Origin: an uncultured virus (IMG/VR IMGVR_UViG_3300047355_000120)
Taxonomy: Duplodnaviria; Heunggongvirae; Uroviricota; Caudoviricetes
Virus record (IMG/VR): IMGVR_UViG_3300047355_000120
Length of the DNA: 64,000 bases
Reading direction: 5' to 3' (one strand)
Shown: one piece after another, positions 11 through 51,811 of the stretch
Position numbering within the stretch: the first letter of the stretch is position 1
How the letters are laid out: every line of letters begins with the position of its first letter
Program-made: the position numbers and the translations under genes
The notes under the pieces: generated by a model
Told to the model about the DNA's origin: nothing
The model's database searches: none
Seen by the model: the letters and a program-made list of their open reading frames with translations, nothing else

Positions 11-145
11 ATGAACACTAAAAAACTAAGACATAAGCACGTTAAACTACTTAAAATTACTAGGCAAGACGCTGAACGTATAGAACTTGAGTGGTTTAGG
101 CGTTACAATTTACAAACTAAATACGAACATAATTGGATAATATAA
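11..145 (+). CDS. small early hypothetical protein (44 aa, MNTKKLRHKH...), not in ORF track
   Basis: Hand-translated ATG at 11 to TAA at 143-145. Confidence 0.45.
   Translation: MNTKKLRHKHVKLLKITRQDAERIELEWFRRYNLQTKYEHNWII
110..143 (+). promoter_or_regulatory. early promoter-like motif, copy 1 (TTACAAACTAAATACGA-N8-GGATAATAT)
   Basis: Both blocks and the 8-nt spacer recur at 966 and 2218; ATG follows at 148. Confidence 0.7.
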
Positions 146-147
146 AT

Positions 148-336
148 ATGAGATGTAAATGTAACAACAAAATACCGGCAGGCAGAATAGCATTAGGTTA
201 TTCAAATTGTGTAAACTGCAGCGCAACACAGCAATATAGTTATATTCCTATTATTGCTAACAAACAAGTTCTTGAATTACAAATAGTAAGCCAAGAACTA
301 AGCGATCAAGTACACAAAGCTTGGCGTAGAAAGTAA
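148..336 (+). CDS. DksA/TraR-like C4 zinc-finger protein
   Basis: CKC...IPAGRIALGYSNCVNC resembles the TraR/DksA finger; ATG at 148 preferred over the track start at 133. Confidence 0.55.
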   Translation: MRCKCNNKIPAGRIALGYSNCVNCSATQQYSYIPIIANKQVLELQIVSQELSDQVHKAWRRK

Positions 337-341
337 CAGAG

Positions 342-577
342 GCTAGACGAGTAGCTTAATTAGGTGTCATACTCACAAACATGTGATCGTCGACGCACAT
401 AAGTGAATAGCTAGCAGAGAGGCGGCGGCATACAGGTCACGTTAGGTAGATCGGTACAATTACACATTAATTTATAATTAATAGTAATGGTAATTTAATT
501 ACTGTACCAGTACGAAACAGAAAGTGTGGATAAATGACAATACTAGTTAACTACCTGTCCACAACTGGTGCCTCTCA
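342..577 (+). ncRNA. candidate structured ncRNA(s) of unknown class
   Basis: Non-coding; helices GCTAG/CTAGC (342/411), ATGTG/CACAT, GAGAGGC/GCCTCTC (417/570), GGTACA/TGTACC, ACCAGT/ACTGGT, GTGGATA/TGTCCAC. Confidence 0.5.
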
Positions 578-580
578 TAA

Positions 581-664
581 GGGAGTGATAAGGTAAGTGA
601 GATTTTAGAACCGAAAAATTAGCGGTAGCAATCTCAAACGGCGGTTCGACTCCGCCCACTTCCA
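581..664 (+). ncRNA. minimal tmRNA-like RNA (tRNA-like domain only, Ala identity)
   Basis: Acceptor GGGAGTG/CACTTCC with G3:U70 and discriminator A; T-arm GGCGG-TTCGACT-CCGCC; stemless D-loop; helix GAGATT/AATCTC; no anticodon arm or tag frame. Confidence 0.7.
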
Positions 665-669
665 CTAAA

Positions 670-742
670 TGCGGCGTAGAGCAGTGGCCAGCTCGTCGGG
701 CTCATAACCCGAAGGTCGGGGGTTCGAATCCTTCCGCCGCAA
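670..742 (+). tRNA. tRNA-fMet (CAT), initiator type
   Basis: Cloverleaf TGCGGCG/CGCCGCA; anticodon arm TCGGG-CTCATAA-CCCGA with three G-C pairs; A11-U24; CCA not encoded. Confidence 0.95.
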
Positions 743-763
743 CTAACATTAAATAAATAAATT

Positions 764-1492: not shown

Positions 1493-1565
1493 TGACTCGT
1501 GGTGTAACTGGCAACACGTCTGGTTTTGGTCCAGAAGAGTCTAGGTTCGAGCCCTAGCGAGTCAA
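1493..1565 (+). tRNA. tRNA-Gln (TTG)
   Basis: TGACTCG/CGAGTCA acceptor; TCTGG-TTTTGGT-CCAGA anticodon arm; CTAGG-TTCGAGC-CCTAG T-arm; CCA not encoded. Confidence 0.95.
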
Positions 1566-1584
1566 CTAACTTAAATTTTATAAT

Positions 1585-6009: not shown

Positions 6010-6516
6010 ATGACCTTAAACCAAAAGCTGGCCACAATCCAGACCAAATTTAAATCGAAGAAAAGTAGATTTAACTCATTCGGCAAATATTACTTCCGCT
6101 CAGCCGAAGACATTCTTGAAGCAACAAAACCCTATTTATTAGAATTAGGAGTAACAGTAACAATTAATGAAAACTTAGTTGAGACTAGTCCTGTACCTAT
6201 TATTGAAAGTTGTGCTACTATATCTGATGGAGAAAATACAATACCTGCTACAGCGTTAGTTGGTGTTGATCTTAATCAAAAAGGTATGCAGACACCACAA
6301 CAGTTCGGTACTGCTTCAAGTTATGGGAAGAAATACGCATTAGGTAACTTATTCCTAATTGATGATACCAAAGATGCTGATGCAACCAATGGTTTACCAA
6401 TGAACAAAGCAGCTATACAAAAAGCTAAAGACTTTGTACAAGCCGGTGGAAAGCTCGATGCTATCAAAAAGAAATATAATGTAACTCCTGAAATTGAAAA
6501 ACAAATAACATTATAG
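6010..6516 (+). CDS. ERF-family single-strand annealing protein
   Basis: N.FGKY.FRSAEDIL, Q..GTASSYGKKYALGNLFLIDDTKDAD. Confidence 0.85.
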   Translation: MTLNQKLATIQTKFKSKKSRFNSFGKYYFRSAEDILEATKPYLLELGVTVTINENLVETSPVPIIESCATISDGENTIPATALVGVDLNQKGMQTPQQFGTASSYGKKYALGNLFLIDDTKDADATNGLPMNKAAIQKAKDFVQAGGKLDAIKKKYNVTPEIEKQITL

Positions 6517-6517
6517 T

Positions 6518-7246
6518 ATGACTAAACAAGAGGTGTTAGATAAGCTTAAAATTGATGAGCATTACTACGGTGACTTTGGTAAACAATACCTTAGTAACTC
6601 AGACATATCAGCTTTGTTAAACAACCCTTTAGCACTTGGACAACAGTCACCGCCATCGGCTGCATTTTTAGTCGGTGGTTATTTTCACACAGCTATACTA
6701 GAGCCTAATAAGCTTAATAAGTATAAAGTTGTGAAATCGTCTACTAGAAATACTAAAGCTTATAAAGACATAGCTGGAGGAGAGTTATGTCTACTACAAC
6801 ATGAGGTTGACTCTATAGAATTAATGAGAGAAAAAATCATGAGTAATGACGTATGTAAAAGTTTAATAACAGGTAATGTTGAATATGAACAACCTGGTAT
6901 TGTAGAACTTGAAGGACAGATGTGGAAAGGTAAAGCTGATATAGTTAATCACGATGAAAAGTTAATCATTGATTTAAAAACTACAGCAGATCTTACTAAA
7001 TTTAAGTACTCAGCTTCTAAATACAATTACGATAGTCAAGCTTTTATTTATAGTAGTCTATTTGGTTATGAATTTATGTTTATTGTTATAGACAAAAAGA
7101 CACATCAAATAGGTATTTATGACTGTTCGCCTCAGTTTTATGAAACTGGGCAGGACAAGGTTAAAAGAGCCGTTGAGGCTTACGATCTGTTTTATAAGAC
7201 AGACAGTTTCGATCCGAAACAATATTTTATTAGTAAAACCCTTTAA
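6518..7246 (+). CDS. PD-(D/E)XK exonuclease (RecE/DUF3799-like)
   Basis: LSNSDI, G..FHTAILEP, KGKADIV, IIDLKTT, Y..QAFIY. Confidence 0.85.
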   Translation: MTKQEVLDKLKIDEHYYGDFGKQYLSNSDISALLNNPLALGQQSPPSAAFLVGGYFHTAILEPNKLNKYKVVKSSTRNTKAYKDIAGGELCLLQHEVDSIELMREKIMSNDVCKSLITGNVEYEQPGIVELEGQMWKGKADIVNHDEKLIIDLKTTADLTKFKYSASKYNYDSQAFIYSSLFGYEFMFIVIDKKTHQIGIYDCSPQFYETGQDKVKRAVEAYDLFYKTDSFDPKQYFISKTL

Positions 7247-16574: not shown

Positions 16575-16693
16575 TTTTTCTTTTTAGATTTAGGTACACA
16601 ATTAGGTACTCTTCTGTTTCCTTTTTTCTTCATGCCGATCATTTCGTAACCAGTCCAGCATGGTCCTTTTTTTCCTTTTTTCTTTTTTTTCAT
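16571..16693 (-). CDS. small basic CWxGY...VPNCVP protein (40 aa), not in ORF track
   Basis: MKKKKKGKKGPCWTGYEMIGMKKKGNRRVPNCVPKSKKKK; overlaps both neighbours by 4 nt. Confidence 0.7.
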   Translation of the reverse strand: MKKKKKGKKGPCWTGYEMIGMKKKGNRRVPNCVPKSKKKK

Positions 16694-19600
16694 AGCTTTA
16701 ATTTTCCGGTTTTCTTTTTTGATTTTTTACTTTTAGGTTTTTTATATTTAGCATAAGGATCTAAACCTAAACTCCACTGATCCCATCCTAATGTTAAAGC
16801 TATAGTTTGCCAAGTTTCAGTTTGACTGTCTAACGCTACATCTAAGTTATTATATTTTTGAAATAATCTGTCTAACGGAATATTTGTTGTTGCTGACGTT
16901 AATTTACCTATAGCTAAATAAGCAGGGTTATCTAAACTTAACCCCATTTCCATTATTTCATCTTTATTATATTGATACGTTAATGCAGCAGATCTTAATT
17001 TATTTATTTTAGATGATATTGGAGGTGATAAACTTAAAGATTTTAATGCTGCAATTTCATAATCAGGTCTATTCTTTTTTGATTGTCTTACCGCTTCTAT
17101 TATAACATTTTTTACAGCAGCTGCTGCAGCACCACCAACACCTAAACCTCTTAAAAGTGAATCAGCCATACCGTTTCCGATACCTATAAGTTTGTCAGTT
17201 TCCTTTTTTTCTTTTTCATCTTCATCTTCTTCCCATATTAAAGCAAACAAAGCTTGCTGTAAAGCATTAAATGCAAAGTTTTGAACAGTACTATAATAGA
17301 CCAATTTAGACATGTTAGTTTTCCAATCACCTCTTTTATTTTTTAAATCTAAAAAAGCTTTTTTCATTAATCGAGAATATTGCATAGGTGTGTTAGCAAA
17401 AGCTAATATAACACGACCTAATGGTCCTGCTTGTTGTTGGCTAATTCTATCAGCTCTACTTGATTGCTGAGCTTCTTCAGTTAACTCTTGCCAGTCTAAT
17501 AAAGCTTTAGCTTTTGCATCAGCTTCTGACATACCTTGTTTTTTAAGAGCATTTATTCTGTTTCTTACCATACTTGCACCACCTATTGCAATAGCAAAAC
17601 TATCGGCAAGCTGTGTAGGTAAAAATCCTTTTGAAAGCAAATAACTTATAGCAGCTTTTGCCTTGTTTTTTGAACCTTTAACATAGTTAGCTATTTCACT
17701 AGCATTAACATCTGTTTTTAAACCAGATCGTCTTGATTTTAAAAAATCTGAGTTAAATAATTCTACAAAATCTGTCCAATATTGTTTTTGATTTAACAAT
17801 GTTTTAGCTACAGCAATTGGATTATTATCAGAAAAATTAATATAGTTTAATGCAGATATAGTTTGTAACACAGCAGATCTTGCATTAAAAAACATAATAG
17901 CACCAACTGAATTATTTATCCAATTCATAAAACTATTAACCAACCTATTAGTACCAAAGTTTCTATTAGTACCATTTTCCATACGGTACAACATATCCTC
18001 TAGTGCTTCTCTAAAATTACTACCGTATATACCTTCAATTTTATTTAAATTTTGTTCGCTAAAAATTTTATTTTTATTTTCAATCCATTGACTTAAAAAT
18101 TCTTTTCTTTTAAAATCTTTAGATTCTTGTTCAAGATCGCTTAAAATACTACCCGCATCCCAGTTATCTGTTGGTTGCACATAGCCATCTGGATTACCTG
18201 TTATAGAAGATATTTTTTTAGCATAATCTTTTATTCGTTCGTTTTTGTTAACAACATCAACTAATTTTTTAATATCATTTTTGTTAACTCCTGGAATATC
18301 ATAACCTGCTAAAGTCCACATATAAACTCTTATAGCGTCTTCATTTGTAAAACCTTTAAAAGTAGACTCTTTTTTTAACAGCTTATGGACATCTTTATAT
18401 TGATTTCTTACATCATTATATAAATTTCTAGTAGCATTTTGTGCTAAATTTAAAGCTTGCATTGCTTGGCCAAAGGGTTTTATTAAAGTTTTGTTAAAAA
18501 ACTCCATTTGTTTTTCACCTACTTTACCTTTGTCTAAAAACGAGTACAATAAACCTACAAAATCTTCAGCTGAAGGTGGTATAAAAAAAGTGTTTCTACC
18601 TATTTTAGCACCTAAAGCTTTTGATCTTTTTGGTGAATATATTTCATATATACCAACGCCTTTTGTTTGTTCTAGTATTTTATTAAATTCTCTACTCATA
18701 TCAGGTAAAGTACTTTCTCTAGCGTTTTCGTCAATTTCTACTTTAACATTAAAATCTTTTAACATTTTAGCAGCAAATTCTGATCTAGCAACCTCGTACA
18801 TTGTTTGATTTGTAAGCACACTATACGTATTTTTACCTATTTTAGGATCTAATAAAAATCTAAGATTTTTTAATCTGTTATTTCTACCACCTAGTTTATC
18901 TAATTTATCAGCTAATTTTTTTGGTATAAAAGATTGTTCAAAACCGTCTAATATACCTTGAATATCTTGATTAAATGTGTTATTAGCTATAGAATTTACT
19001 ATTGCCGATGTTAAATTAGATGCATCATAAACGTGTTCTCCTTTATAACCTTGTAAGTTTTTAGGAATATTTTGAGCACCATCAGTAAAATAAAAAGAAG
19101 TAAACGCTGCATAAGCCCTTGCTGAGAACACAGAGTTTGTTGTTAGTTGTAAATTTGTTATAACATCTTTAACAGCATCATCTCTAGTCATCTTACCATC
19201 TTTAACTTGTTTATCAACCCAGTCGTTCCAACTAGAATGCACAGCTTCCATTAATGCATGGCCTGCTTCTAATGCTTTTCTACCATCATTTCCAATAATT
19301 TTTCTTAATTTTGCAGCTTTTTCTTTCCCAGTTATGTTTTCATTAGCAATTTCAGAAGCAATATTTATTATGTGTCCAAGTTTATTAGCTGTTTTATTAG
19401 AAACCTCAAGATCACCTTTTATTTTATCAAACTTTTTCCATCTAGCTTTTGTTTCTGGGCTAGTAAATTCATCAAATTTATTATCTTTTATAGCTTGATT
19501 TATTTTATTTTCTTTAGTTTTTAAATTATCTTTATACGCTAAAGACCTAGCTCTATTTAATAAAAGTTTTTCTTTTGCAACACCATCTACTTCAACACCT

Positions 19601-22600
19601 TCAAAAGATTTTTGCAAAACAATAGATCCTTTAACTGATTTAGAATAAGCTATTTGTTCTTTTTCCGTTTGATTTGTAAAAAACATTAAACCTCTATCAC
19701 TACCATTATCTTTATATATTACTTTACTTATAATGTTAGAGTTAGCGTTTGAGTATTTTTGCGTAAGCAATGATTTAGGTAAATAGTTTAATACTTGATT
19801 AGCTACCTCAAAAGCTCTTTGTTGTCTTTTTAAATTAGTTAAAGTAACTCCATTTTCTGTTCTAGTAAGTTTATAATCACCGTCTTTTAAATATTTACTT
19901 AATACTTCATTTTTTTCAAAGTCTTTTTTAAGCCTAGCAAGATAACCATCGTTATTTATACCCTCAAGATTTATTTCTTTTTTTGCAAATTCATTAAAAG
20001 CTTGATCAAAAGCAGCAAACAATTCAACATTTTCTTGCATTGTTTCTACAGGACCTTGTAAAAGCTTTACTAAATCATCAGTTGACAAACCTTGACTATT
20101 AGCTATATCTACTAATTCAGAAGCTCTAGAATCATTATTAGGGTTATCTCTTTCAATCTGCTTAGCTATTATAGCTTGATAATTATCTTTAAGATCATTA
20201 TTCATTAACGATTGTATGCCTTCAAATCTTTGCCTAGCCTCTTTGTTATTCATTAACACATCCATTGTTTGATCAAAAGCAAGCTCAGCACCTAAGTTTT
20301 CTGCTAACTTATCTTTTCTTGTACCTTTTTTAGATCCTTTTATATCAAAAAATTCTAAAAATTGATCTTTTGTAGGCATTTTTTTAGCATACAAAGTTGG
20401 TCCTGTTTTTCTACCAGTATCTTTATTTAATTTGCCTTCAGCTATAGCTTTATCTACAGCTTTAGGTTTTAAATTTTTTTGTAATTCTTTAGTAAAAATT
20501 CTATTTTCAGGTTTAATTAACCTTTCCATTCTAACTAAAACACTTATTGGTAATTTTTGAACAATAGTTCTTCTAACTTGAGGATCAGATAAAAATCTTG
20601 TATAATTTTTTTTCGTACCCATTAAGTCTGCTAATGGTTTTTTTAATTCATTTGCAAAAGATTTTTCTAAATCTTTTCTAAAAGCTTTTTGATCTATTGA
20701 AGACAATCTAGTTCCTAACGTTTTAATAACAGCATTAACAACTTTTATTCTTTCTTTATCATTTAATTTTAATCTTTTTGCTAAATCTATTTGTGGTTTT
20801 TCTGGAGTTGTAGTTGATGTATTTTCTTCTGATGTATTAGTAGTAGTTCTGTCATCTATTTCTGAGGTAAATAAATTACCATCTTGACCTAAACTTTTTA
20901 ATATATTACCTAATCTACCTCCGCCAAATTTACCACCTCCATATAAAGCTTCTTTAATATATGCGCCGTATTCTCCTTTACTAGGATTATAAGTTTTGTT
21001 TAATCTAACTAAAACTTCTTCCTGAACAGCAGCTTTAAATTCTTCTCTTGTTATTCCTAGACCACTTTTAAATTTATCATTAACAAAATTGTTTACAACA
21101 CCTTGATTGTTTAAAAATAAATCATTTTTAATATCAATTGCTTGTTGATCAGTAGCTGTTTTTAAAGCTTCGGATAATTTTTTATTTTCTTCTACTATTG
21201 ATTCCCTTTCACCTGCTCCTTTTTTACCAGGACTTAAATTTGCATCTATTTTTATTCCAGCACCTAACTTTCCTTTAAAAAATGTTTTATTATAATTTTT
21301 TAAAAACTCAAACGCCTGTTCTCCTGTTTCTATTTTAGCAGCGTTAATGGTTTCATTACCCATGTTTAAGTTAAACTTAAAAAAATCATTTAAATCATTT
21401 GCTATTCTTTGCCAAAATGTTTTATCTTGTCTATTCCAATTTATATTTCCTAATGATATTTCATCACTAATACTTGTAAAAACTTCTTGGGCATAATTTG
21501 CTTTAGCTTGCTGTTTTTGTTTTTTAGTAGATTTTTTATCATTTAAAACTTTATCTCTTTTTTTAGCATAATTATTTAATCTACTTTTTATTTTACTTAC
21601 AACTCCTGCTGAAATATTTTTACCATCATTGTTGTTTTGCTCTTCTAAATATGTAGTAAGTTTTTCACCCATATTTATAACTTGCTCTTTAGTCATAGTT
21701 CTGTCTAGAACAGCGTGTAGAACTTCGTGAGCAACACTAACTGATGATGCGGCTCTACTATCGTCTATTAGTTGTAATGATGCGTTAGAGTTAATGTTTT
21801 CAGCACTAACAAAAATAGTTTGTTTTTTACCAGGCTCATATTTTGTTATATATGCCGATGTATTAGCTGATGCAAATTTATCTAATATTTTCTTTTTTTG
21901 ATTTTCAAATTCAGAAGGTAAATTTGTTGGATCTGTATTACTATCTAAAGTAATTAACTCTAAATTAGAATCAGGATCTAATGATTTTAAAAAATTAACA
22001 CCTCCTTCAAGAGAGCTTTTAGCATTTCTAACGTAGTCAGTCATTGTAGTAACTTTATCGTCAGATTTTAATTTGCCATTTTCTTTTAGATAATCTATTT
22101 CAGCATCAATAGCTTTTATTTTATCACCAGCTACTTTAACTAAAGCATCGTTACCTTGTATATATCTTTTTGTTGCTAACAAGTCGGCAACTCTTTGCTT
22201 AACACTTAATGAAGCTCTTTTACCTTTTAAAACCTCTTTAGTAGATTCAGCTATGTAACCGTTTTCTAATATTTGATTTTGTTCTTCTACTGTTATAGCA
22301 TTTCTTTTTATTAGACCATCAGTAAATTTTTTTAATTGCTCTACAGAATAACCACCATCAATAACAGAGTTTAAATTAGTTCTAAGATTGTCTGCCATTT
22401 TAACAGCTTGATCTGTCATATTAGCTCTAGCAATTTTTAAACCTAAGTTTGACGCGGTTCCAAATTGACCCCCAATCATTTCATCAAATATTTCTGTTAC
22501 TTTTATACCTTCACCTGATGATAATTGAGCAAGAAGTTCTCCACCTCCCTCAAACAAAGGTTCAACAACTGTTTGACTGACTAAACCTAAACCTATTTGT

Positions 22601-24561
22601 TTTGCTGTAGAAGCTAATGGCGCAACAAATGCACCTGCCATTTTAGCACCTAACACATTCATTATAGCTATAGGAACTCCTCTTTTAAAACCTAACTCAT
22701 TAGCTTTTTCTCTTATTTCAGGATTTCTTAATCCTTTAACTAATTCTTCAGCATTTTCCATATCAATTCCCGCTTCACTAAGAGTTTGGCCATATGCGTT
22801 ACCAACTTCCATACCTAATCCTGTTAAACCTTGCCATGTCATTAATCCATAACCTAAACCTGTAACAGCACCTGGTAGACCAGCCGATGCACCACCGATA
22901 GCGGCACCTCCACCAACAACAGGTATTATCATTTCAGTTCCTGTAGAAAAAAATTGACTTAAAGAATTACCTGTTAAACTTGCTAATATTTCTATAGGAT
23001 TAGTACCTAATATAGCTGTTTTTTCAGTTAAAGTTTCAGCGTTCATATAAGCCTCGTAAACTTCTGAATTTAATATACCGTTGTTTTTAGCATTTGTTAA
23101 TGCAATGTTTTCACTTACAGCAGCCATTTCTTCATCATTGTCTAAATCAGTAACACCTAAAACAATTTTATTATAAGCTCTATTATTTTTACCGTTTAAC
23201 CAACCTTTTATTGTTACGTTGATTGTGCTGAGTAAAGAATTGTTTTCATATTCACCTCTCATTTTAGAAACTGTACCATAGTCTAACATTAAATTTAAAC
23301 TATCTGAAGCCTCTTGAATTCTTGATATTTGTTTATTTAAAACTTGACTATCATTTAAAATCTTATTTAAAGGTGATGAATATTCTTGCAGATCGTTTAT
23401 TTCAAGACTAAGTTCGTATAATTTTTCTCTTTCTTCACTATTTTTAGGTTTATAATCAGATAAACTATTTATATCGCCTCCAGTTATATTTTTAATTTCT
23501 TTATTAAGTCTATCGAATTCTTTATTAACATTGTCAACGATTGTTTTACTACCTTTTAAATCTACTTTATATGCTTCCATCATTGCTTTATCTAATAAAC
23601 CAATGTCTTTTTCTAAAGCTCCTGAATCATTTTTTAATGTTTTTTGAGTTTCAAGAACATCTTCAGCAAATTCTAAATCTGCTATTTTTTTAATACGTTG
23701 ATACTCTTCGTTTCCTTTTAAATCTAAGTAACTAGAATTTTTATCTTCTAATTCTTTTTTAATTTTTTCAACTTTATATTTTTTTATTTTACCATCTTCA
23801 TCAAAGTAATCTGGGTAATTTTTTATATCTTCAGGAGTACCTTGATAGTTTTCATTAACAACTTTTCTATCTATACCACCAATATCTCTTCTTTGTTCAG
23901 AAACAGAGGTTCCACGCATTAATACATCATCAATAAACTTTAGATCTTTTTCATTTTTTTTAATGTTTTCATCAACATATCTTATTTTTTCAAAATCTAA
24001 ACCATTGTTTGCATAAACTATATCTTCATAAGCTCTTAAAAGTGCGTCCTCTCCAGTGTGTAACCTATCGTTAGCACCTGTATAACTACCGTCTTCGTTT
24101 TTAACAATATTTTTTTTAAAAGTTTTCCAGTTTAAATCTTTATTAGGATTTAGCAAAGGTTTATCAATTTTATAATCGTTAAGTTTATTTAATTCAACTT
24201 TTCTTTTTTCTAGTTCTTCTTTTTTTCTTTCAGATCTAAAAGCAAAGTCAACTAAACCGTCGTACTCCGCTCTCATATCTCTTAATTCTTTTTCATATTT
24301 TTTTGGATCTGTTTTATAAAGTTCATAATTTTTTTGAGCTGTATCCAAAGAAATGTTTTCCGAATCTGAACCCGTACTCTCGGGTGCTGCATTTACCTGA
24401 TCCACATCCGCACCCTGGGCTTGTGAACCGTTTGTCTTTCCCTCATTAGCAGTTTTAAATTCTTTAATTTTTGCTGTATACTGAGACTCTCTATCTTTAT
24501 CAGATAAATTATTATCTGCTAAAATACTATTTAAGATCTGTTTTTGTTCTTCTGTAAGCAT
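16690..24561 (-). CDS. giant (2623 aa) putative internal virion/ejection polyvalent protein
   Basis: Last of three helical genes after the tail genes; Gly/Ala hydrophobic region; HEVLH zincin motif. Confidence 0.7.
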   Translation of the reverse strand: MLTEEQKQILNSILADNNLSDKDRESQYTAKIKEFKTANEGKTNGSQAQGADVDQVNAAPESTGSDSENISLDTAQKNYELYKTDPKKYEKELRDMRAEYDGLVDFAFRSERKKEELEKRKVELNKLNDYKIDKPLLNPNKDLNWKTFKKNIVKNEDGSYTGANDRLHTGEDALLRAYEDIVYANNGLDFEKIRYVDENIKKNEKDLKFIDDVLMRGTSVSEQRRDIGGIDRKVVNENYQGTPEDIKNYPDYFDEDGKIKKYKVEKIKKELEDKNSSYLDLKGNEEYQRIKKIADLEFAEDVLETQKTLKNDSGALEKDIGLLDKAMMEAYKVDLKGSKTIVDNVNKEFDRLNKEIKNITGGDINSLSDYKPKNSEEREKLYELSLEINDLQEYSSPLNKILNDSQVLNKQISRIQEASDSLNLMLDYGTVSKMRGEYENNSLLSTINVTIKGWLNGKNNRAYNKIVLGVTDLDNDEEMAAVSENIALTNAKNNGILNSEVYEAYMNAETLTEKTAILGTNPIEILASLTGNSLSQFFSTGTEMIIPVVGGGAAIGGASAGLPGAVTGLGYGLMTWQGLTGLGMEVGNAYGQTLSEAGIDMENAEELVKGLRNPEIREKANELGFKRGVPIAIMNVLGAKMAGAFVAPLASTAKQIGLGLVSQTVVEPLFEGGGELLAQLSSGEGIKVTEIFDEMIGGQFGTASNLGLKIARANMTDQAVKMADNLRTNLNSVIDGGYSVEQLKKFTDGLIKRNAITVEEQNQILENGYIAESTKEVLKGKRASLSVKQRVADLLATKRYIQGNDALVKVAGDKIKAIDAEIDYLKENGKLKSDDKVTTMTDYVRNAKSSLEGGVNFLKSLDPDSNLELITLDSNTDPTNLPSEFENQKKKILDKFASANTSAYITKYEPGKKQTIFVSAENINSNASLQLIDDSRAASSVSVAHEVLHAVLDRTMTKEQVINMGEKLTTYLEEQNNNDGKNISAGVVSKIKSRLNNYAKKRDKVLNDKKSTKKQKQQAKANYAQEVFTSISDEISLGNINWNRQDKTFWQRIANDLNDFFKFNLNMGNETINAAKIETGEQAFEFLKNYNKTFFKGKLGAGIKIDANLSPGKKGAGERESIVEENKKLSEALKTATDQQAIDIKNDLFLNNQGVVNNFVNDKFKSGLGITREEFKAAVQEEVLVRLNKTYNPSKGEYGAYIKEALYGGGKFGGGRLGNILKSLGQDGNLFTSEIDDRTTTNTSEENTSTTTPEKPQIDLAKRLKLNDKERIKVVNAVIKTLGTRLSSIDQKAFRKDLEKSFANELKKPLADLMGTKKNYTRFLSDPQVRRTIVQKLPISVLVRMERLIKPENRIFTKELQKNLKPKAVDKAIAEGKLNKDTGRKTGPTLYAKKMPTKDQFLEFFDIKGSKKGTRKDKLAENLGAELAFDQTMDVLMNNKEARQRFEGIQSLMNNDLKDNYQAIIAKQIERDNPNNDSRASELVDIANSQGLSTDDLVKLLQGPVETMQENVELFAAFDQAFNEFAKKEINLEGINNDGYLARLKKDFEKNEVLSKYLKDGDYKLTRTENGVTLTNLKRQQRAFEVANQVLNYLPKSLLTQKYSNANSNIISKVIYKDNGSDRGLMFFTNQTEKEQIAYSKSVKGSIVLQKSFEGVEVDGVAKEKLLLNRARSLAYKDNLKTKENKINQAIKDNKFDEFTSPETKARWKKFDKIKGDLEVSNKTANKLGHIINIASEIANENITGKEKAAKLRKIIGNDGRKALEAGHALMEAVHSSWNDWVDKQVKDGKMTRDDAVKDVITNLQLTTNSVFSARAYAAFTSFYFTDGAQNIPKNLQGYKGEHVYDASNLTSAIVNSIANNTFNQDIQGILDGFEQSFIPKKLADKLDKLGGRNNRLKNLRFLLDPKIGKNTYSVLTNQTMYEVARSEFAAKMLKDFNVKVEIDENARESTLPDMSREFNKILEQTKGVGIYEIYSPKRSKALGAKIGRNTFFIPPSAEDFVGLLYSFLDKGKVGEKQMEFFNKTLIKPFGQAMQALNLAQNATRNLYNDVRNQYKDVHKLLKKESTFKGFTNEDAIRVYMWTLAGYDIPGVNKNDIKKLVDVVNKNERIKDYAKKISSITGNPDGYVQPTDNWDAGSILSDLEQESKDFKRKEFLSQWIENKNKIFSEQNLNKIEGIYGSNFREALEDMLYRMENGTNRNFGTNRLVNSFMNWINNSVGAIMFFNARSAVLQTISALNYINFSDNNPIAVAKTLLNQKQYWTDFVELFNSDFLKSRRSGLKTDVNASEIANYVKGSKNKAKAAISYLLSKGFLPTQLADSFAIAIGGASMVRNRINALKKQGMSEADAKAKALLDWQELTEEAQQSSRADRISQQQAGPLGRVILAFANTPMQYSRLMKKAFLDLKNKRGDWKTNMSKLVYYSTVQNFAFNALQQALFALIWEEDEDEKEKKETDKLIGIGNGMADSLLRGLGVGGAAAAAVKNVIIEAVRQSKKNRPDYEIAALKSLSLSPPISSKINKLRSAALTYQYNKDEIMEMGLSLDNPAYLAIGKLTSATTNIPLDRLFQKYNNLDVALDSQTETWQTIALTLGWDQWSLGLDPYAKYKKPKSKKSKKKTGKLKL
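24382..24442 (-). promoter_or_regulatory. putative -1 programmed ribosomal frameshift element
   Basis: In-frame G_GGA_AAG, 6-nt spacer, stems GGTTCAC/GTGGATC and GGGTGC/GCACCC forming an H-type pseudoknot. Confidence 0.6.
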
Positions 24562-27791: not shown

Positions 27792-29780
27792 TTAATAAGA
27801 TGATTCTACTATCGTAGACGATATTGCAAATAATTCTTTTTTAACATTATTATAAACTCTATTGTCTAATGTCATTTTAACTGTTGAAAAGAATCCTTTT
27901 ACACCTGACATATCAGGTCCAAAGATAACCTCACCTTGTGTTGCTGTTGAATTATTTATAAGATTTGCAAAATACTTATCTTCTTTTTTCTTAAAAGTGT
28001 TTTGCCATATTTGATTTTCAAGAGCTGTTAAATCTGTTTTAAACACGTATTCAGTTATTGGTAATGTAACATCACCAGAACTAGATGTCATATTTTCTAA
28101 AGCCCAGCCCTGACTTCCTTCGTAATTAATTGTTTTAAAGTTTTTAACAACTGAAGGATTTGAATTTAATATTAAAGTAACTGTTGAAGGATATATTAAA
28201 CCATAATAGTTACCGTAAGTATTTAAAGCGTTGTGATAATATATATTACCATAAAAGAAACTATAAAAATCACTTTTTATACTTGTTATATATGAAGGTC
28301 TATATTTATAAAAACTAGTCCAACCTAATATAGACTCATCAAAAGAAGCAGTGCTATAAGGTTTTAATTGAAAACTTATATTTGCACCAGCTGGAATAGA
28401 ATTAACTAATTCACAAGTAATAGCTATTGTTGAAAAAGAAATAACATCTCCAGAGTCTACACCCCAACCAGATTGATCAGTGTTAACCCTAGTTGATGCA
28501 CCGTTATAAGTTGGATATAAAGTTGTTGTAACTAATCCTCTTGATACTCCAGTTGTTGTATTTAAAGATTTTAAACCTGTTGTTATAACAGTTGTTAAAT
28601 CTCCTGCAAAAGTAAAATGACCTCCATTAACATTGTTTACTAATTCTACTTTACTTGTAACTGTATAATCATAACTTGAGCTTTTAGTTATACCATAAAA
28701 CTCACCAGTATTAGTATCAAAAATTTCCATGCCACTAGTTAATACACCTCCGGATGTTGCCAGAACAACTGTAACATCGTTACCAGCGCTATAACCTACA
28801 CCAGAATATGTATCTTTAGTAACTAAGTTACTAGGAGTTTCTTGTATAGAAATTATATAATTTTTACTATGATTATCCCACGCTCCAACTATATTGTTAG
28901 CTAAATTTAATCTATCTCTAAAAAAGTCATGCATGCCATAACTTGATATTTCTGTTATACCATCATGTGATAATCTTAATACACAACCTCTTTTTCTGTC
29001 TGTAAAATATTTTCTGTAACCATATACAGCAAAACTATTAGGATCCGTAGATATACCATATTCACCTGCATAAGCTATTATTTGACCTATAACTAATGGC
29101 CTAGATGTAACAGTAGCGTTACCCTCTGCAGAATATATTGCATCTTTATCTATTAAAGCTCTACTTACTTTATCTTCTTGAAATATAATTAAATTAGTAT
29201 CTTCAGCGTAAAGTCTTTGTATAGATCCGTTAGCTGGATCTGCTGATTTAGTTATGTCTAAACCTACAGAAAACTGATTAGTATCGTTAACACCAGTTCT
29301 AGAGTTGAATATACCAGAATATATAAGCGAACTAATTCTATGTTGCTGTGCAAATGTATCTTCAACTAAAAAAGCTTTAACACCATAATCTAATGATGTA
29401 TTGTTATACCCTCCTCTAATCCTAGCTTCTTCTATATACCAGTCTGTTGCCGTGTCAGAATCATAATCTTGAGGTATGTTAGCATTAGGAGCAACGCCAG
29501 TAAATTTTATTTGATCATTAAGAGTTACTGTTTCTGAAGAGCTTATTGTTATATCTTGATTGTTAGCTGCTACTGAAACCACGGTTACAGTTCCAGTAAA
29601 AGGATTTGTAACATTTGTAACAACTTGACCTGCGCCTATTTTAGTGCTAGGGTTTTGTAAGTTTATTATATTAGCTGCACTAGCGTTAGCTGGTAAAGTA
29701 ACAGTTTCTATATCTGTAATACTCTTGATTTTTTTTAACCAGAATGAATTAAAGTAGTTTACTTCTAATGTAGCTGCCAT
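27792..29780 (-). CDS. tail structural protein (stabilisation/nozzle-like, C-terminal part)
   Basis: IYSG..NS.TGVN..NQF, GEYGIS..P.SFA.YG...YFTD..RG.VLRLS.DG, FKTINYEG. Confidence 0.7.
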   Translation of the reverse strand: MAATLEVNYFNSFWLKKIKSITDIETVTLPANASAANIINLQNPSTKIGAGQVVTNVTNPFTGTVTVVSVAANNQDITISSSETVTLNDQIKFTGVAPNANIPQDYDSDTATDWYIEEARIRGGYNNTSLDYGVKAFLVEDTFAQQHRISSLIYSGIFNSRTGVNDTNQFSVGLDITKSADPANGSIQRLYAEDTNLIIFQEDKVSRALIDKDAIYSAEGNATVTSRPLVIGQIIAYAGEYGISTDPNSFAVYGYRKYFTDRKRGCVLRLSHDGITEISSYGMHDFFRDRLNLANNIVGAWDNHSKNYIISIQETPSNLVTKDTYSGVGYSAGNDVTVVLATSGGVLTSGMEIFDTNTGEFYGITKSSSYDYTVTSKVELVNNVNGGHFTFAGDLTTVITTGLKSLNTTTGVSRGLVTTTLYPTYNGASTRVNTDQSGWGVDSGDVISFSTIAITCELVNSIPAGANISFQLKPYSTASFDESILGWTSFYKYRPSYITSIKSDFYSFFYGNIYYHNALNTYGNYYGLIYPSTVTLILNSNPSVVKNFKTINYEGSQGWALENMTSSSGDVTLPITEYVFKTDLTALENQIWQNTFKKKEDKYFANLINNSTATQGEVIFGPDMSGVKGFFSTVKMTLDNRVYNNVKKELFAISSTIVESSY

Positions 29781-49579: not shown

Positions 49580-50023
49580 TTATCTATTTTTATCTTTATT
49601 TACATTTTCTATAGATGTTATCATTACTTTATCTATATAAGTATTACCTTTCATTATTTTATTTCTAGCAACAGAAGTTGGTATATCTTCTGTGCCTAGC
49701 ATAATACGGTACATACGACTTATTAGTTGTTTACACTTGAAGGAAACTTTATAGATATTATACTTTTGCGTTGTGCGGTTGTGTTTTCTCCAAACCGTTA
49801 TCCAACCTTCTTTAAGTAATCTGTTCCAGCGTCTGTTGTCCCAACTATAAGAATACGTACCGATTTTAAAATCTTCTCTAGTGAAAAAATTCATGCAATC
49901 GAAATATATAAGTAATTCTAAATCTGCATCATTAAGATTATTATTTTTGCAAGCCCATTTTCTAATTATACGATAATGTTTTAAAAGATTTAAATCTTTT
50001 ATATCTTTAGCTTCTAATCTCAT
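49580..50023 (-). CDS. putative winged-helix protein
   Basis: LNDADLELLIY, RLLKEGWI.VW; coupled to groES. Confidence 0.55.
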   Translation of the reverse strand: MRLEAKDIKDLNLLKHYRIIRKWACKNNNLNDADLELLIYFDCMNFFTREDFKIGTYSYSWDNRRWNRLLKEGWITVWRKHNRTTQKYNIYKVSFKCKQLISRMYRIMLGTEDIPTSVARNKIMKGNTYIDKVMITSIENVNKDKNR

Positions 50024-50280
50024 AATACAACCACAACATGATCTACTTTTACCACGCTGTAAATGTCTTTTTTTATTTCTATTTGATGTGAATTATTTTT
50101 ATCAAAATATATAATATTACCTTTTTTTATACCTAAAACTTCATTACCTGCAGATATTACAGTTGCTTCTTCATACCTTATATCTTCTCTTTGTTTTTCT
50201 GCTAACAATAACCCGCCTTTAGTTTCAGACACACCTTGTTTTACAGCTTGTATAATTAAATTTCTACCTATTGCCTTCAT
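50020..50280 (-). CDS. groES: co-chaperonin GroES
   Basis: Mobile loop ETKGGLLL, VISAG.EV..IKKG. Confidence 0.85.
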   Translation of the reverse strand: MKAIGRNLIIQAVKQGVSETKGGLLLAEKQREDIRYEEATVISAGNEVLGIKKGNIIYFDKNNSHQIEIKKDIYSVVKVDHVVVVL

Positions 50281-51811
50281 TAATTCTTAAGTTATTAATT
50301 ATACAATCAGTTGATAATATTGTTGTAGCTACTGAAGCTGCATTTTGTAATGCACTTTTAGTCACGAGTAAGGGATCAATAATTCCTGACTCAATCATAT
50401 TTACCATATCTCCTGTAACAACGTTTAAACCATATCCAAACTCTTTTATTTCCGAATAATCTTCAATACCAGCATTGTTTAATATAGTTAAAAAAGGTGC
50501 TTTAATTGCATCATACAAAATTCTTTGTGTTGGTTGTACAGCAATAAACTTTGATGCATTTAATAAAGCAATACCACCTCCTGGTACTATACCTTGTTTT
50601 ATAGCAGCTTTAGTAGCACAAATAGCATCTTCGACTCTAGCTTGTTTTTCTTGTAATTCTACTTCTGAGTTAGCTCCTACTTTTACAACAGCTACTTTAC
50701 CAGAAAGTCTTGCTAATCTTTTTTCTAATCTTACAACTATTAAAGGATCTTTAGTTTTAGCTAAATCTTTTTCTAGTTTGATTATAATATCTTTTACTTT
50801 TTGATTATTAGGTTTTGCTTGTAAAATTGTTTCAGTTTGACTTGTTATACTCTTTAAACATTCACCTAAATGTTCAGGACCTATTAAATCTATATCATCA
50901 CCTAAGTCTTCGTTTATAATAGTAGCTCCTGTAACTAAAGATAAATCTTTTAACACTTCTTTTTTACTTATACCGTAAATAGGTGCATCAATTACATTTA
51001 CCTTAATATTACCTTTTATTTTATTCATTGCTAACGCAGACATAACTTGTGTATCTATATCAGCTATTATTAGCAGCGATCTATTTTGTTTTATAGCGTA
51101 TTCTAATACGTTTTGTATTTTTCTAACAACATCAACCTGTGATTCAACTAATAAAACTAAAGGATTATCTAATTCAGCTGTAGTTGTTTCTTCGTTTGTT
51201 ACAAAATGAACATTTTTTAAACCTCTATTGTATTGAATACCATCAATAAGTTCATAATTTGTTTCAGGTAATTCAGTAGGTTCTAACATTACTACTCCGT
51301 TTTTACCAGCTGCTCTAAAAGCATCTGCAATAATTTTACCTAAAATAGGATCATTGTTTGTTGATATAGTTGCAACTTGATCTATCATGTCGCCTTCAAC
51401 AGGAACAGCTATATCTTCTAAATATTGTATAGCTTGTTTTGTTGCTGTTTCTATACCTTGTTTTATATCTCTTGTTGAAGCTTTTGATTTGTAAGCTTCT
51501 TCTAAAATAGCATGAGCTAATACCGTAGCGGTAGTAGTACCATCTCCAGCTTCTCTCACTGTTTTTCTAGCCGCTTCTTTTAAAAGAGTTGCACCCATAT
51601 TTTCTACTGGATCCAACAGTGTAATAGCCTCTGCTACAGTTACACCATCTTTTGTAATAAGTGGTTTACCAGTATTGTCTTCTAACATAACACACTTACC
51701 ACTAGCCCCAAGAGTGGAGCTAACGGCTTGTGTAAGTTTTTTAATACCAGCAAACACATTGTTTTTAGCATCTGAACCAAAGCTCAGATTTTTTACAATT
51801 GCATTTGACAT
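50264..51811 (-). CDS. groEL: chaperonin GroEL (no GGM tail)
   Basis: ITKDGVTVA, AGDGTTTATVLA, RVEDA..ATKAA...GIVPGGG, GIIDP..VT. Confidence 0.97.
   Translation of the reverse strand: MSNAIVKNLSFGSDAKNNVFAGIKKLTQAVSSTLGASGKCVMLEDNTGKPLITKDGVTVAEAITLLDPVENMGATLLKEAARKTVREAGDGTTTATVLAHAILEEAYKSKASTRDIKQGIETATKQAIQYLEDIAVPVEGDMIDQVATISTNNDPILGKIIADAFRAAGKNGVVMLEPTELPETNYELIDGIQYNRGLKNVHFVTNEETTTAELDNPLVLLVESQVDVVRKIQNVLEYAIKQNRSLLIIADIDTQVMSALAMNKIKGNIKVNVIDAPIYGISKKEVLKDLSLVTGATIINEDLGDDIDLIGPEHLGECLKSITSQTETILQAKPNNQKVKDIIIKLEKDLAKTKDPLIVVRLEKRLARLSGKVAVVKVGANSEVELQEKQARVEDAICATKAAIKQGIVPGGGIALLNASKFIAVQPTQRILYDAIKAPFLTILNNAGIEDYSEIKEFGYGLNVVTGDMVNMIESGIIDPLLVTKSALQNAASVATTILSTDCIINNLRINEGNR

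Follow-up and report, generated by a model that had tools for sequence, protein, structure and literature searches.

Nearly all bacteria use trans-translation, and the process is a drug target. In passages of PMC8012679, the tRNA-like domain (TLD) of transfer-messenger RNA (tmRNA) is charged by alanyl-tRNA synthetase (AlaRS) and binds EF-Tu as a tRNA does, SmpB occupies the place of the arm that tmRNA is missing, and transfer to the TLD requires a messenger RNA (mRNA) ending within about 9 nt of the P site. Forms without the message are on record. The relevant passages of the 2025 tmRNA database paper (PMC11915505) describe plastid forms of about 65 bp that lack a coding sequence (CDS) and message-less tmRNAs of jakobid mitochondria, and PMC4131195 (Hudson, Lau & Williams 2014) lists a tmRNA of 'Mycobacterium phage DS6A (TLD only)'. 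According to citing passages, expression of a DS6A-form molecule in E. coli inhibits the endogenous tmRNA (PMC11915505, repeating PMC4131195), and this inhibition is independent of whether the molecule can be charged (a citing passage in PMC4131195). A phage family of such RNAs was not described in the literature searched, in which only PMC11915505 was relevant among papers on mini-, TLD-only or CDS-less tmRNAs. Here we describe a TLD-only RNA gene of 84 nt in a 64,000-nt stretch of DNA (hereafter the window) from an uncultured marine virus of the Caudoviricetes, IMG/VR record IMGVR_UViG_3300047355_000120. We show that it belongs to a conserved phage RNA family with an exchangeable inner arm, and we weigh what such an RNA might do in an infected cell.

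The gene and its parts are as follows; RF00023 is the Rfam tmRNA model, R1 a covariance model built from relatives of the element, and G001 a viral record nearly identical to the window.

581..664, + strand: the whole gene, for a tmRNA-like RNA that is TLD-only and has no message, 84 nt long before CCA is added (sequence, fold, RF00023, R1).
581..587, + strand: 5' strand of the acceptor stem, GGGAGTG, with G3 at 583; pairs with 657-663.
588..597, + strand: stemless D-loop ATAAGGTAAG (= AUAAGGUAAG), with the tmRNA-type A8-U9 and GG (RF00023 alignment; unpaired in the fold).
597..636, + strand: swappable inner arm, a 7-bp helix with a cap hairpin (fold; comparison with G001).
598-604 / 630-636, + strand: inner helix TGAGATT / AATCTCA (fold).
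610-626, + strand: cap ACCG-AAAAATTAG-CGGT with stem 610-613/623-626; the full stretch reads TTAGA-ACCG-AAAAATTAG-CGGT-AGC.
637..639, + strand: linker AAC, replacing the GGAC neck of tmRNA (neck deleted or mismatched in the RF00023 alignment; fold).
640..656, + strand: T-arm GGCGG-UUCGACU-CCGCC (sequence, fold).
657..664, + strand: 3' strand of the acceptor stem, CACTTCC (U70 at 661), and discriminator A73 (664) (sequence).

A preliminary description of the locus had proposed an acceptor stem GGGAGTG/CACTTCC carrying G3:U70 and A73, a perfect T-arm, a stemless D-loop, an inner helix and a cap, and both sequence and fold agree with it. The third acceptor pair, G583:T661, is G3:U70, and the unconstrained RNA fold of the 84 nt is the structure listed above, at -27.4 kcal/mol (z -2.68; 3/200 shuffles were as stable). 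In a relaxed scan RF00023 matched 581-667 end to end (model positions 1-374) with 38.3 bits against a cut-off of 47 (E 1.9e-13, with 1.4 kb searched), 12 nt replacing 294 model positions. On the G001 copy, which has the same backbone, RF00023 scored 38 bits and the tRNA model RF00005 scored 25.6 bits, below its cut-off of 29; this difference on one backbone argues for tmRNA over tRNA identity. R1 gives the window element 90.1 bits. Its D-loop has the GG without a stem, and its T-arm fits the tmRNA sequence GGUUCGAnUCC (RF00023 alignment, fold). An anticodon arm with a 7-nt loop and a D-stem are both absent from the fold, as are pseudoknots PK1-PK4, for which 84 nt leaves no room, and the RF00023 alignment, with an arm of about 40 nt, contains no mRNA-like domain, resume codon, tag frame or stop. 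ARAGORN, run over the whole window, reported neither a tRNA nor a tmRNA at 581-664, and at Rfam gathering thresholds this interval was unmatched, the only matches being tRNA-Met and tRNA-Gln; scoring below the Rfam gathering score and without an ARAGORN call, the element is overlooked by current gene finders. With RF00023 outscoring RF00005 and no tRNA called by ARAGORN, the earlier claim of a TLD lacking anticodon arm, pseudoknot and tag frame stands, and we conclude that 581-664 is the tRNA-like domain of a tmRNA without its message, and that it is not a cloverleaf tRNA or a decayed copy.

Two further proposals concerned the surroundings of the element and its likeness to helix 2a of tmRNA. 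The tRNA-Met gene placed 5 nt downstream was located by ARAGORN at 670-743, and the 3' end said to be common to the element and both phage tRNAs is indeed shared: none of the three encodes CCA, and a CTAA trailer follows the discriminator A in the element, tRNA-Met and tRNA-Gln alike. With this common trailer, and with no terminator-like site found on the + strand between 1 and 1800, the suggested co-processing with the tRNAs is plausible. The parallel with tmRNA helix 2a and its GGAC linker holds only loosely: the helix is present, but the canonical neck 5'-GAC/3'-GGA(C), with its tandem G.A, is missing from the element, which reads AAG-U...A-AAC in the RF00023 alignment.

Relatives of the element were collected by a pattern scan of viral contigs in which positions 1-4, 69 and 70 were free and positions 5-9, 66-68 and 71-73 were fixed. 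The scan returned at least 120 loci and, with the window, at least 85 unique sequences. Among the matches listed, 47 unique sequences had a complete 7-bp acceptor stem; four of these were tRNA-Tyr, and the other 43/43 carried G3:T70. Most of the other 38 listed unique matches resembled, by eye, 3' ends of full-length tmRNAs (GGAC...CCACCTCCACCA), and a few were ordinary tRNAs by ARAGORN. R1 was built from 16 relatives and gave 52 matches at E<=1e-7 in 52 sources chosen from the scan loci. In the resulting alignment, which is fitted to the model and draws its loci from the pattern that fixes positions 5-9, 66-68 and 71-73, paired cells amount to 93.8% vs 70.0% in shuffles (0/500 as high), and to 39-53% when the partners are slid by 1-3 columns. 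Changes on both sides of a pair occur in 7/7 pairs of the inner helix and in 2/5 pairs of the T-stem (pairs 2 and 3). G3:U70 is kept in 50/51 distinct rows, whereas the neighbouring pair 4:69 is free (AU 22, GC 14, CG 13).

An independent sample of 42 loci was collected through the small open reading frame (ORF) that lies upstream of the RNAs at 133-336, and not through the RNA pattern. At 21/42 of these loci R1 strongly matches a downstream element in the same orientation (22 rows, 21 distinct, 43-91 bits); no strong match was found at the other 21. In this synteny-selected sample G3:U70 occurs in 20/21 distinct elements, the exception being an A3:U70 in the first copy of a tandem pair, and the 7-bp acceptor stem, A73 and the CTA trailer are present in 22/22 rows. 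Five weaker R1 rows comprise a TLD::tRNA-Met hybrid, one copy with a degenerate 5' part and three 47-nt minihelix copies without G3:U70. The preliminary description had asked whether homologs would prove to be full-length tmRNAs or ordinary tRNAs; they are instead elements of 69-143 nt of the same build, and the conservation of G3:U70 (50/51 and 20/21 distinct rows) and the covariation of all seven inner-helix pairs uphold the reading that it gave. From these comparisons, the element is a conserved structured phage RNA whose putative alanine identity elements, G3:U70 and A73, are under selection.

Some rearranged copies deserve mention in their own right. At L162:1702-1790 the 5' half of a TLD is fused to the 3' part of a tRNA-Met. 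The tandem pair of TLDs lies at L170:1793-1872 and 1876-1971, its first member having A3:U70 and a GGAC linker. In L184, L185 and L190, at about 2287-2363, a 47-nt acceptor/T-arm minihelix sits within an arm of Module A, a structured RNA described below.

How the window RNA compares with known molecules can now be stated more exactly. With canonical tmRNA (RF00023) it shares the G3:U70 acceptor, the A8-U9...GG D-loop, the GGUUCGAnUCC T-loop, A73 and a helix between D-loop and T-arm, but it is without the mRNA-like domain, resume codon, tag frame, pseudoknots and GAC/GGAC neck of that RNA. An acceptor/T-arm minihelix with G3:U70 and A73 is sufficient for AlaRS. Like tRNA-Ala and the alanine minihelix, the window RNA has G3:U70, A73 and a 7-bp acceptor stacked on a T-arm; unlike tRNA-Ala, it has neither anticodon arm nor D-stem. 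It resembles t-elements as an acceptor and T-arm mimic inside polycistronic transcripts, but t-elements need no amino-acid identity elements, and in the window family G3:U70 and A73 are conserved. With the message-less organellar tmRNAs (jakobid, RF02544; plastid) it shares the concept of a TLD kept without a tag frame; those RNAs differ in being organellar genes served by a nucleus-encoded SmpB. The likeness to mitochondrial tmRNA that had been suggested was not recovered, as RF02544 left the G001 copy of the window backbone unmatched at E<=10.

The DS6A element (tmID 11587; JN698994 ~28478-28560) is unannotated, receives no ARAGORN call, has G3:U70 and A73, and matches RF00023 end to end with 43.2 bits and the whole of R1 with 28.6 bits. 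It and the window RNA are both phage-borne molecules of about 80 nt with a G3:U70 stem, a stemless D-loop, a short closing helix, a T-arm, A73 and no encoded CCA, and both give an end-to-end but sub-threshold RF00023 match (43.2 vs 38.3 bits) and are ARAGORN-negative. The similarity of their sequences is weak, as the R1 score indicates. DS6A, from an actinobacteriophage, is GC-rich and has a neck of the canonical UCGAC...G(G)CAC type, whereas the window RNA has AAG...AAAC; the canonical ..GAC / GGAC.. junction is kept in DS6A and in several other viral members, in contrast to the AAG-U / A-AAC of the window subfamily. Unlike DS6A, the window RNA belongs to a family with cassette arms, stands in an array with two structured RNAs and tRNA-Met, and comes from a probable podovirus of Flavobacteriia. 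The window RNA is the same kind of object as the DS6A TLD-only tmRNA, one such RNA is thus already published, in PMC4131195, and the novelty implied by the preliminary description was overstated. What is new relative to DS6A is the altered neck, the cassette-like arm, and the sharing of arms with two unclassified structured RNAs. The preliminary description had mentioned neither the hypervariable arm nor these two RNAs, which lie just ahead of the element.

The cassette-like character of the arm is most evident between the window and G001, which differ at 28 positions over 35,073 aligned nt (three blocks). Twenty-one of these differences fall in the arm, 597-636, and the remaining seven lie at 128, 781, 1268, 1271, 41959, 58263 and 58270. 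In G001 the place of the arm is taken by an unrelated 37-nt sequence, also with a helical fold. Two contigs with flanks 84-89% identical to those of the window, on the other hand, bear the arm of the window with 2 changes in 39 nt. A strict metagenome pattern, consisting of flank, element and start of tRNA-Met, gave 0 matches, and a backbone pattern was used instead; scans with the exact backbone yielded 22 viral and 117 metagenome loci. The 138 loci, including the window, have 43 distinct arms that fall into 18 types of 1-7 variants each. Arms and flanks were compared at 65 loci, those with 300 nt or more on each side (2,080 pairs, each classed by the lower of its two flank identities), with the following outcome, in which the highest flank-identity classes hold few pairs.

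Flank identity >=98%: same arm type in 2/3 pairs.
Flank identity 95-98%: same arm type in 1/2 pairs.
Flank identity 90-95%: same arm type in 3/6 pairs.
Flank identity 80-90%: same arm type in 16/52 pairs.
Flank identity <80%: same arm type in 197/2,017 pairs.

The arm type is tied to the flanks only loosely. As the backbone is identical by selection in this comparison, exchange of the arm alone is indistinguishable from exchange of the whole element. One 28-nt arm is present on both GGGAGTG and GGGCGTG TLD frames. On several arms the terminal loop is a GAAA tetraloop with closing G-C pairs. Within the 64-kb window there is no second copy of any of the 43 arms, only matches of 12-20 nt at E>=0.002, and no reverse transcriptase is encoded among its 70 ORFs; a diversity-generating retroelement or a cassette switch within the genome is therefore unlikely, and exchange of arms between genomes is the likely route. 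Such exchange could proceed through the conserved ends of the element, with the ERF-family protein of the phage as catalyst.

The 330 nt ahead of the element, when aligned among relatives, resolve into conserved blocks with variable inserts that form two structured RNAs.

340..418, + strand: Module A, with an outer helix, an AGUA/GAA-type internal loop, an inner helix and a variable arm (alignment A8; no Rfam family).
417..577, + strand: Module B, a closing helix and an H-type pseudoknot, with a variable hairpin insert at ~445-525 (alignment A7; no Rfam family).

Rfam yielded no matching family for either module, whether in the window (E<=10) or in five other loci, minimal forms among them (E<=1). 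In 33 distinct Module A sequences paired cells amount to 90.0% vs 73.5% in shuffles (0/500 as high), the outer helix covaries, and the second helix switches from C-G to G-C in 8/33 sequences; its internal loop of AGUA opposite GAA we take to be a motif of the sarcin-ricin/loop-E type. In 14 Module B sequences the figures are 96.5% vs 87.7% (0/500 as high), with compensatory changes, from few independent events, in the closing helix and each of the two pseudoknot helices. A conserved 22-nt loop of Module B keeps a stop (UAA, UAG or UGA) in one frame, a weak and post hoc observation. Module B ends 3-6 nt before the TLD, and a minimal form of 73 nt occurs in relatives. The array of Module A, Module B, TLD and tRNA-Met is itself modular, since relatives have Module A directly followed by the TLD, a TLD straight after the upstream ORF, or Module A elsewhere. 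Arms are shared across this array: of 63 distinct TLD arms, 14 have a match (E<=1e-3) among the Module A or B inserts of other loci; the G001 arm, for instance, has a 23-nt stretch that agrees at 22/23 positions with a Module B insert on a different contig. The arm of the window itself matches no Module A or B insert. Pairing of the arm with Module B was considered and rejected, as the arm changed in G001 and the upstream sequence did not.

We favour the view that the element is a functional TLD-only phage RNA that competes for host SmpB and stalled ribosomes, and, taking identity and mechanism jointly, we think this about equally apt to prove right or wrong. Competition of this kind is the best-supported mechanism on account of the TLD parts that the RNA retains and the precedent of the DS6A type. 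The element would share a transcript with tRNA-Met and the RNAs ahead of it and would be cut by RNase P at G1, trimmed at its 3' end after A73, and given its CCA by the host enzyme, as must happen to the two CCA-less phage tRNAs. Host AlaRS would charge it with alanine, and host SmpB and EF-Tu would bind it; neither SmpB nor AlaRS was found among the 70 window ORFs scanned, so the element would depend on those of the host. A message-less RNA would bind the same partners as the full tmRNA of the host and at most accept a nascent chain, and it would compete with that tmRNA for SmpB and stalled ribosomes. As a result, proteins made from truncated or processed phage messages would escape tagging for proteolysis, and host trans-translation would be weakened. 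If helix 2 of tmRNA is a guide, the arm would face away from the binding partners and so be free for cassette exchange. The tRNA-like genes of the phage stand among ORFs, and in five relatives the element begins 3-5 nt past the stop codon of the preceding ORF. Cleavage by RNase P at such a site would produce messages whose ends lie near the ribosome, natural substrates of tmRNA, which might give the phage a motive for such an RNA.

Several points weigh against this competitor reading. Expression, CCA addition, alanylation and SmpB binding are, all four, predictions. Helix 2a has no canonical 5'-GAC/3'-GGAC neck at its base in the window subfamily, and this neck is part of the contact with SmpB. 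A simple sponge, moreover, would explain neither the 18 discrete, conserved arm types nor the near-clonal genomes that differ almost only in the arm. The element is missing from the cultured relatives examined: among those related by terminase (MW202828, elemoE 6-9C, phi19:3, phi38:1 and Gundel_1), 0/5 have the element by R1, and the annotated tmRNA of Maribacter phage Panino was rejected as a TLD-only RNA, as it looks like a permuted two-piece gene.

These phages hold tRNA-like sequences of other kinds. The two weak R1 hits in the cultured relatives were set aside as a tRNA-Asp and a degenerate tRNA-like sequence with G3:C70. In Tenacibaculum phage Gundel_1 (L158) a tRNA-like pair at 1501-1569 and 1577-1644 (27.8 and 25.7 bits, under the tRNA threshold, and no ARAGORN call) heads the phage tRNA array; its first member has G3:C70 and is thus not a TLD. 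In Panino (L211, PP540027 27200-28400) the annotated 'tmRNA' overlaps tRNA-Asp and tRNA-Thr, a T-arm and a 3' acceptor strand lie at ~380-452, and a 5' part, GGGGGTGATTGGATTTGAC... (from 490), follows about 40 nt downstream.

The retention of an acceptor with alanine identity elements raises the question of whether the RNA acts on the ribosome rather than only occupying its partners. A charged TLD could enter stalled ribosomes with SmpB and accept the nascent chain on its alanine, the peptidyl-RNA then being freed by drop-off, peptidyl-tRNA hydrolase or ArfB-type factors, so that ribosomes are recycled and proteins left unmarked. We regard this tag-less rescue as rather unlikely. The RNA has no stop codon with which translation could end, and we know of no release route for a peptidyl-Ala-TLD. 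Conservation of G3:U70 and A73 speaks for it, being relevant only if charging matters, as do the message-less jakobid mitochondrial and plastid tmRNAs described in the relevant passages of PMC11915505; but the citing passage in PMC4131195 has inhibition by a similar molecule independent of chargeability, and the mitochondrial model RF02544 was unmatched. A different emphasis places the function in the arm: the tRNA-like frame would serve processing, stability and perhaps delivery, and the interchangeable arm would be the selected specificity part, which might bind variable proteins of host or phage, as their ligand or decoy, or serve as a dock that builds the TLD and Modules A and B into a larger RNA particle. 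Much of the arm evidence fits this display of arms, namely near-clonal genomes that differ chiefly there (21/28 differences in 35,073 nt), the division of the arms at 138 loci into 18 discrete types of few variants, the same type in 197 locus pairs with <80% flank identity, one 28-nt arm on the two backbones GGGAGTG and GGGCGTG, the 14/63 distinct arms that match Module A/B inserts elsewhere, and GAAA tetraloops with G-C closing pairs on several arms. We nonetheless consider it improbable: no motif is common to all arms, the window arm matches no Module A/B insert, neutral variation is usual in the peripheral hairpins of many RNAs, short conserved flanks and an ERF protein could yield cassette exchange without selection, and the conservation of G3:U70 places the frame itself under selection of the tRNA-Ala type.

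The remaining alternatives make less of the tmRNA-like features. As processing punctuation, in the manner of a t-element, the tRNA shape would do no more than bring RNase P and RNase Z to the long transcript, for cleavage between tRNA-Met and the RNAs or ORF ahead of it. The co-oriented run of genes without a terminator-like site on the + strand, the start of the element 3-5 nt after an upstream ORF stop in five relatives, and the 47-nt minihelix without G3:U70 in three related loci are consistent with this role, but RNase P and RNase Z need neither G3:U70 nor A73 nor a tmRNA-type D-loop, all of which are conserved, and the adjacent tRNA-Met already provides cleavage sites 5 nt away; we judge it very unlikely as the explanation of the element. 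Module B might instead be the message part of a rearranged but complete tmRNA, given its covarying pseudoknot, its end 3-6 nt before the TLD, and a loop in which a stop is kept through UAA, UAG and UGA and 6/9 changed positions are third codon positions. Both stop-keeping changes are A-to-G transitions, however, which makes that signal weak as well as post hoc; the supposed tag would be short and its end not hydrophobic, many family members have a TLD without Module B, and in G001 the arm changed with Module B unchanged. A message attached to the 5' end of the acceptor would in addition have no known entry to the mRNA channel and would be removed by RNase P, and we see hardly any likelihood in a split tmRNA. 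That the element is a decayed tRNA or tmRNA pseudogene without function seems to us the most improbable account of all: scores below both Rfam thresholds and the missing ARAGORN call would fit it, but three helices are kept by compensatory changes in dozens of phages, the position of the element is conserved, and seven differences outside the arm in ~35 kb show a backbone that is not decaying.

The neighbourhood of the array includes the following features.

133..336, + strand: small Cys-rich ORF of 67 aa, ahead of the RNA array in relatives (42 related loci, 21 with the element downstream).
670..743, + strand: tRNA-Met(CAT), initiator-like, 5 nt downstream of the element (ARAGORN; RF00005 66.9 bits).
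1493..1566, + strand: tRNA-Gln(TTG) with CTAA trailer (ARAGORN, Rfam).
6010-6516, + strand: ERF-family single-strand annealing protein, beside a PDDEXK (DUF3799) nuclease.
6518-7246, + strand: PDDEXK (DUF3799) nuclease, beside the ERF protein.

The 5-nt spacing between element and tRNA-Met recurs in the closest relatives. This tRNA-Met (670-743, + strand) has three G-C pairs beside the anticodon loop and a U1:A72 pair; presumably it is close to bacterial initiator tRNA, with the usual C1xA72 mismatch replaced by U1:A72. The 67-aa ORF belongs to no family in Pfam, PHROGs or Atlas, the one lead being a weak one to a zinc ribbon at 0.87. Elsewhere the window encodes a large terminase, portal and virion proteins, tail fibres, GroEL/GroES, ribonucleotide reductase, thymidylate synthase, ligase, a primase-helicase and a sigma-like factor. 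The terminase is 63% similar to that of an uncultured podovirus, 44% to those of Flavobacterium 'elemo' phages, 36-38% to those of Cellulophaga phages and 30% to that of a Tenacibaculum phage, and from these relatives the host is probably a member of the Flavobacteriia and the phage a podovirus. The ERF/PDDEXK recombination module could mediate exchange of RNA arms through short homology. A contig from the public DNA run X2 is identical to the window over 517-668. Contigs assembled from three public RNA runs included none over 559-660, a result with no bearing on expression, ends or CCA either way.

Three further features of the phage were noted. A repeat of about 50 nt (..TACAAACTAAATACGA..GGATAATATAAATATG) stands directly before start codons at ~107-160 and 966-1014 in the window, with four more copies in G001 (L002-L006), and is probably a phage promoter or translation-start module. 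Amid the virion genes, an ORF of 2,623 aa (16690-24561, - strand) belongs to no Pfam or PHROG family. The GroES/GroEL pair (Cpn10, Cpn60) is encoded at 50020-51811 on the - strand.

A wider reading, which we put forward tentatively and think unlikely as it stands, is that the TLD and Modules A and B are three chassis of one phage RNA system, with interchangeable arms drawn from a common pool. The arms would then be selected specificity parts, which could dock the RNAs into a larger particle by GAAA-tetraloop-type contacts or act as decoys of variable host factors, and would be swapped by short-homology recombination, so that near-clonal phages would differ only there; the alanine-accepting frame would be a device for delivery and stability as much as a competitor for SmpB. 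The family is large in marine viromes, with one example in print, and its cassette arm hot spot, together with the sharing of arms with two structured RNAs, points to a mode of diversification at the level of RNA that is not described in the literature searched. If the competitor reading is true, a natural TLD-only phage RNA would offer a means, already at hand, to probe or inhibit the SmpB-tmRNA step, and phages would be seen to manipulate ribosome rescue.

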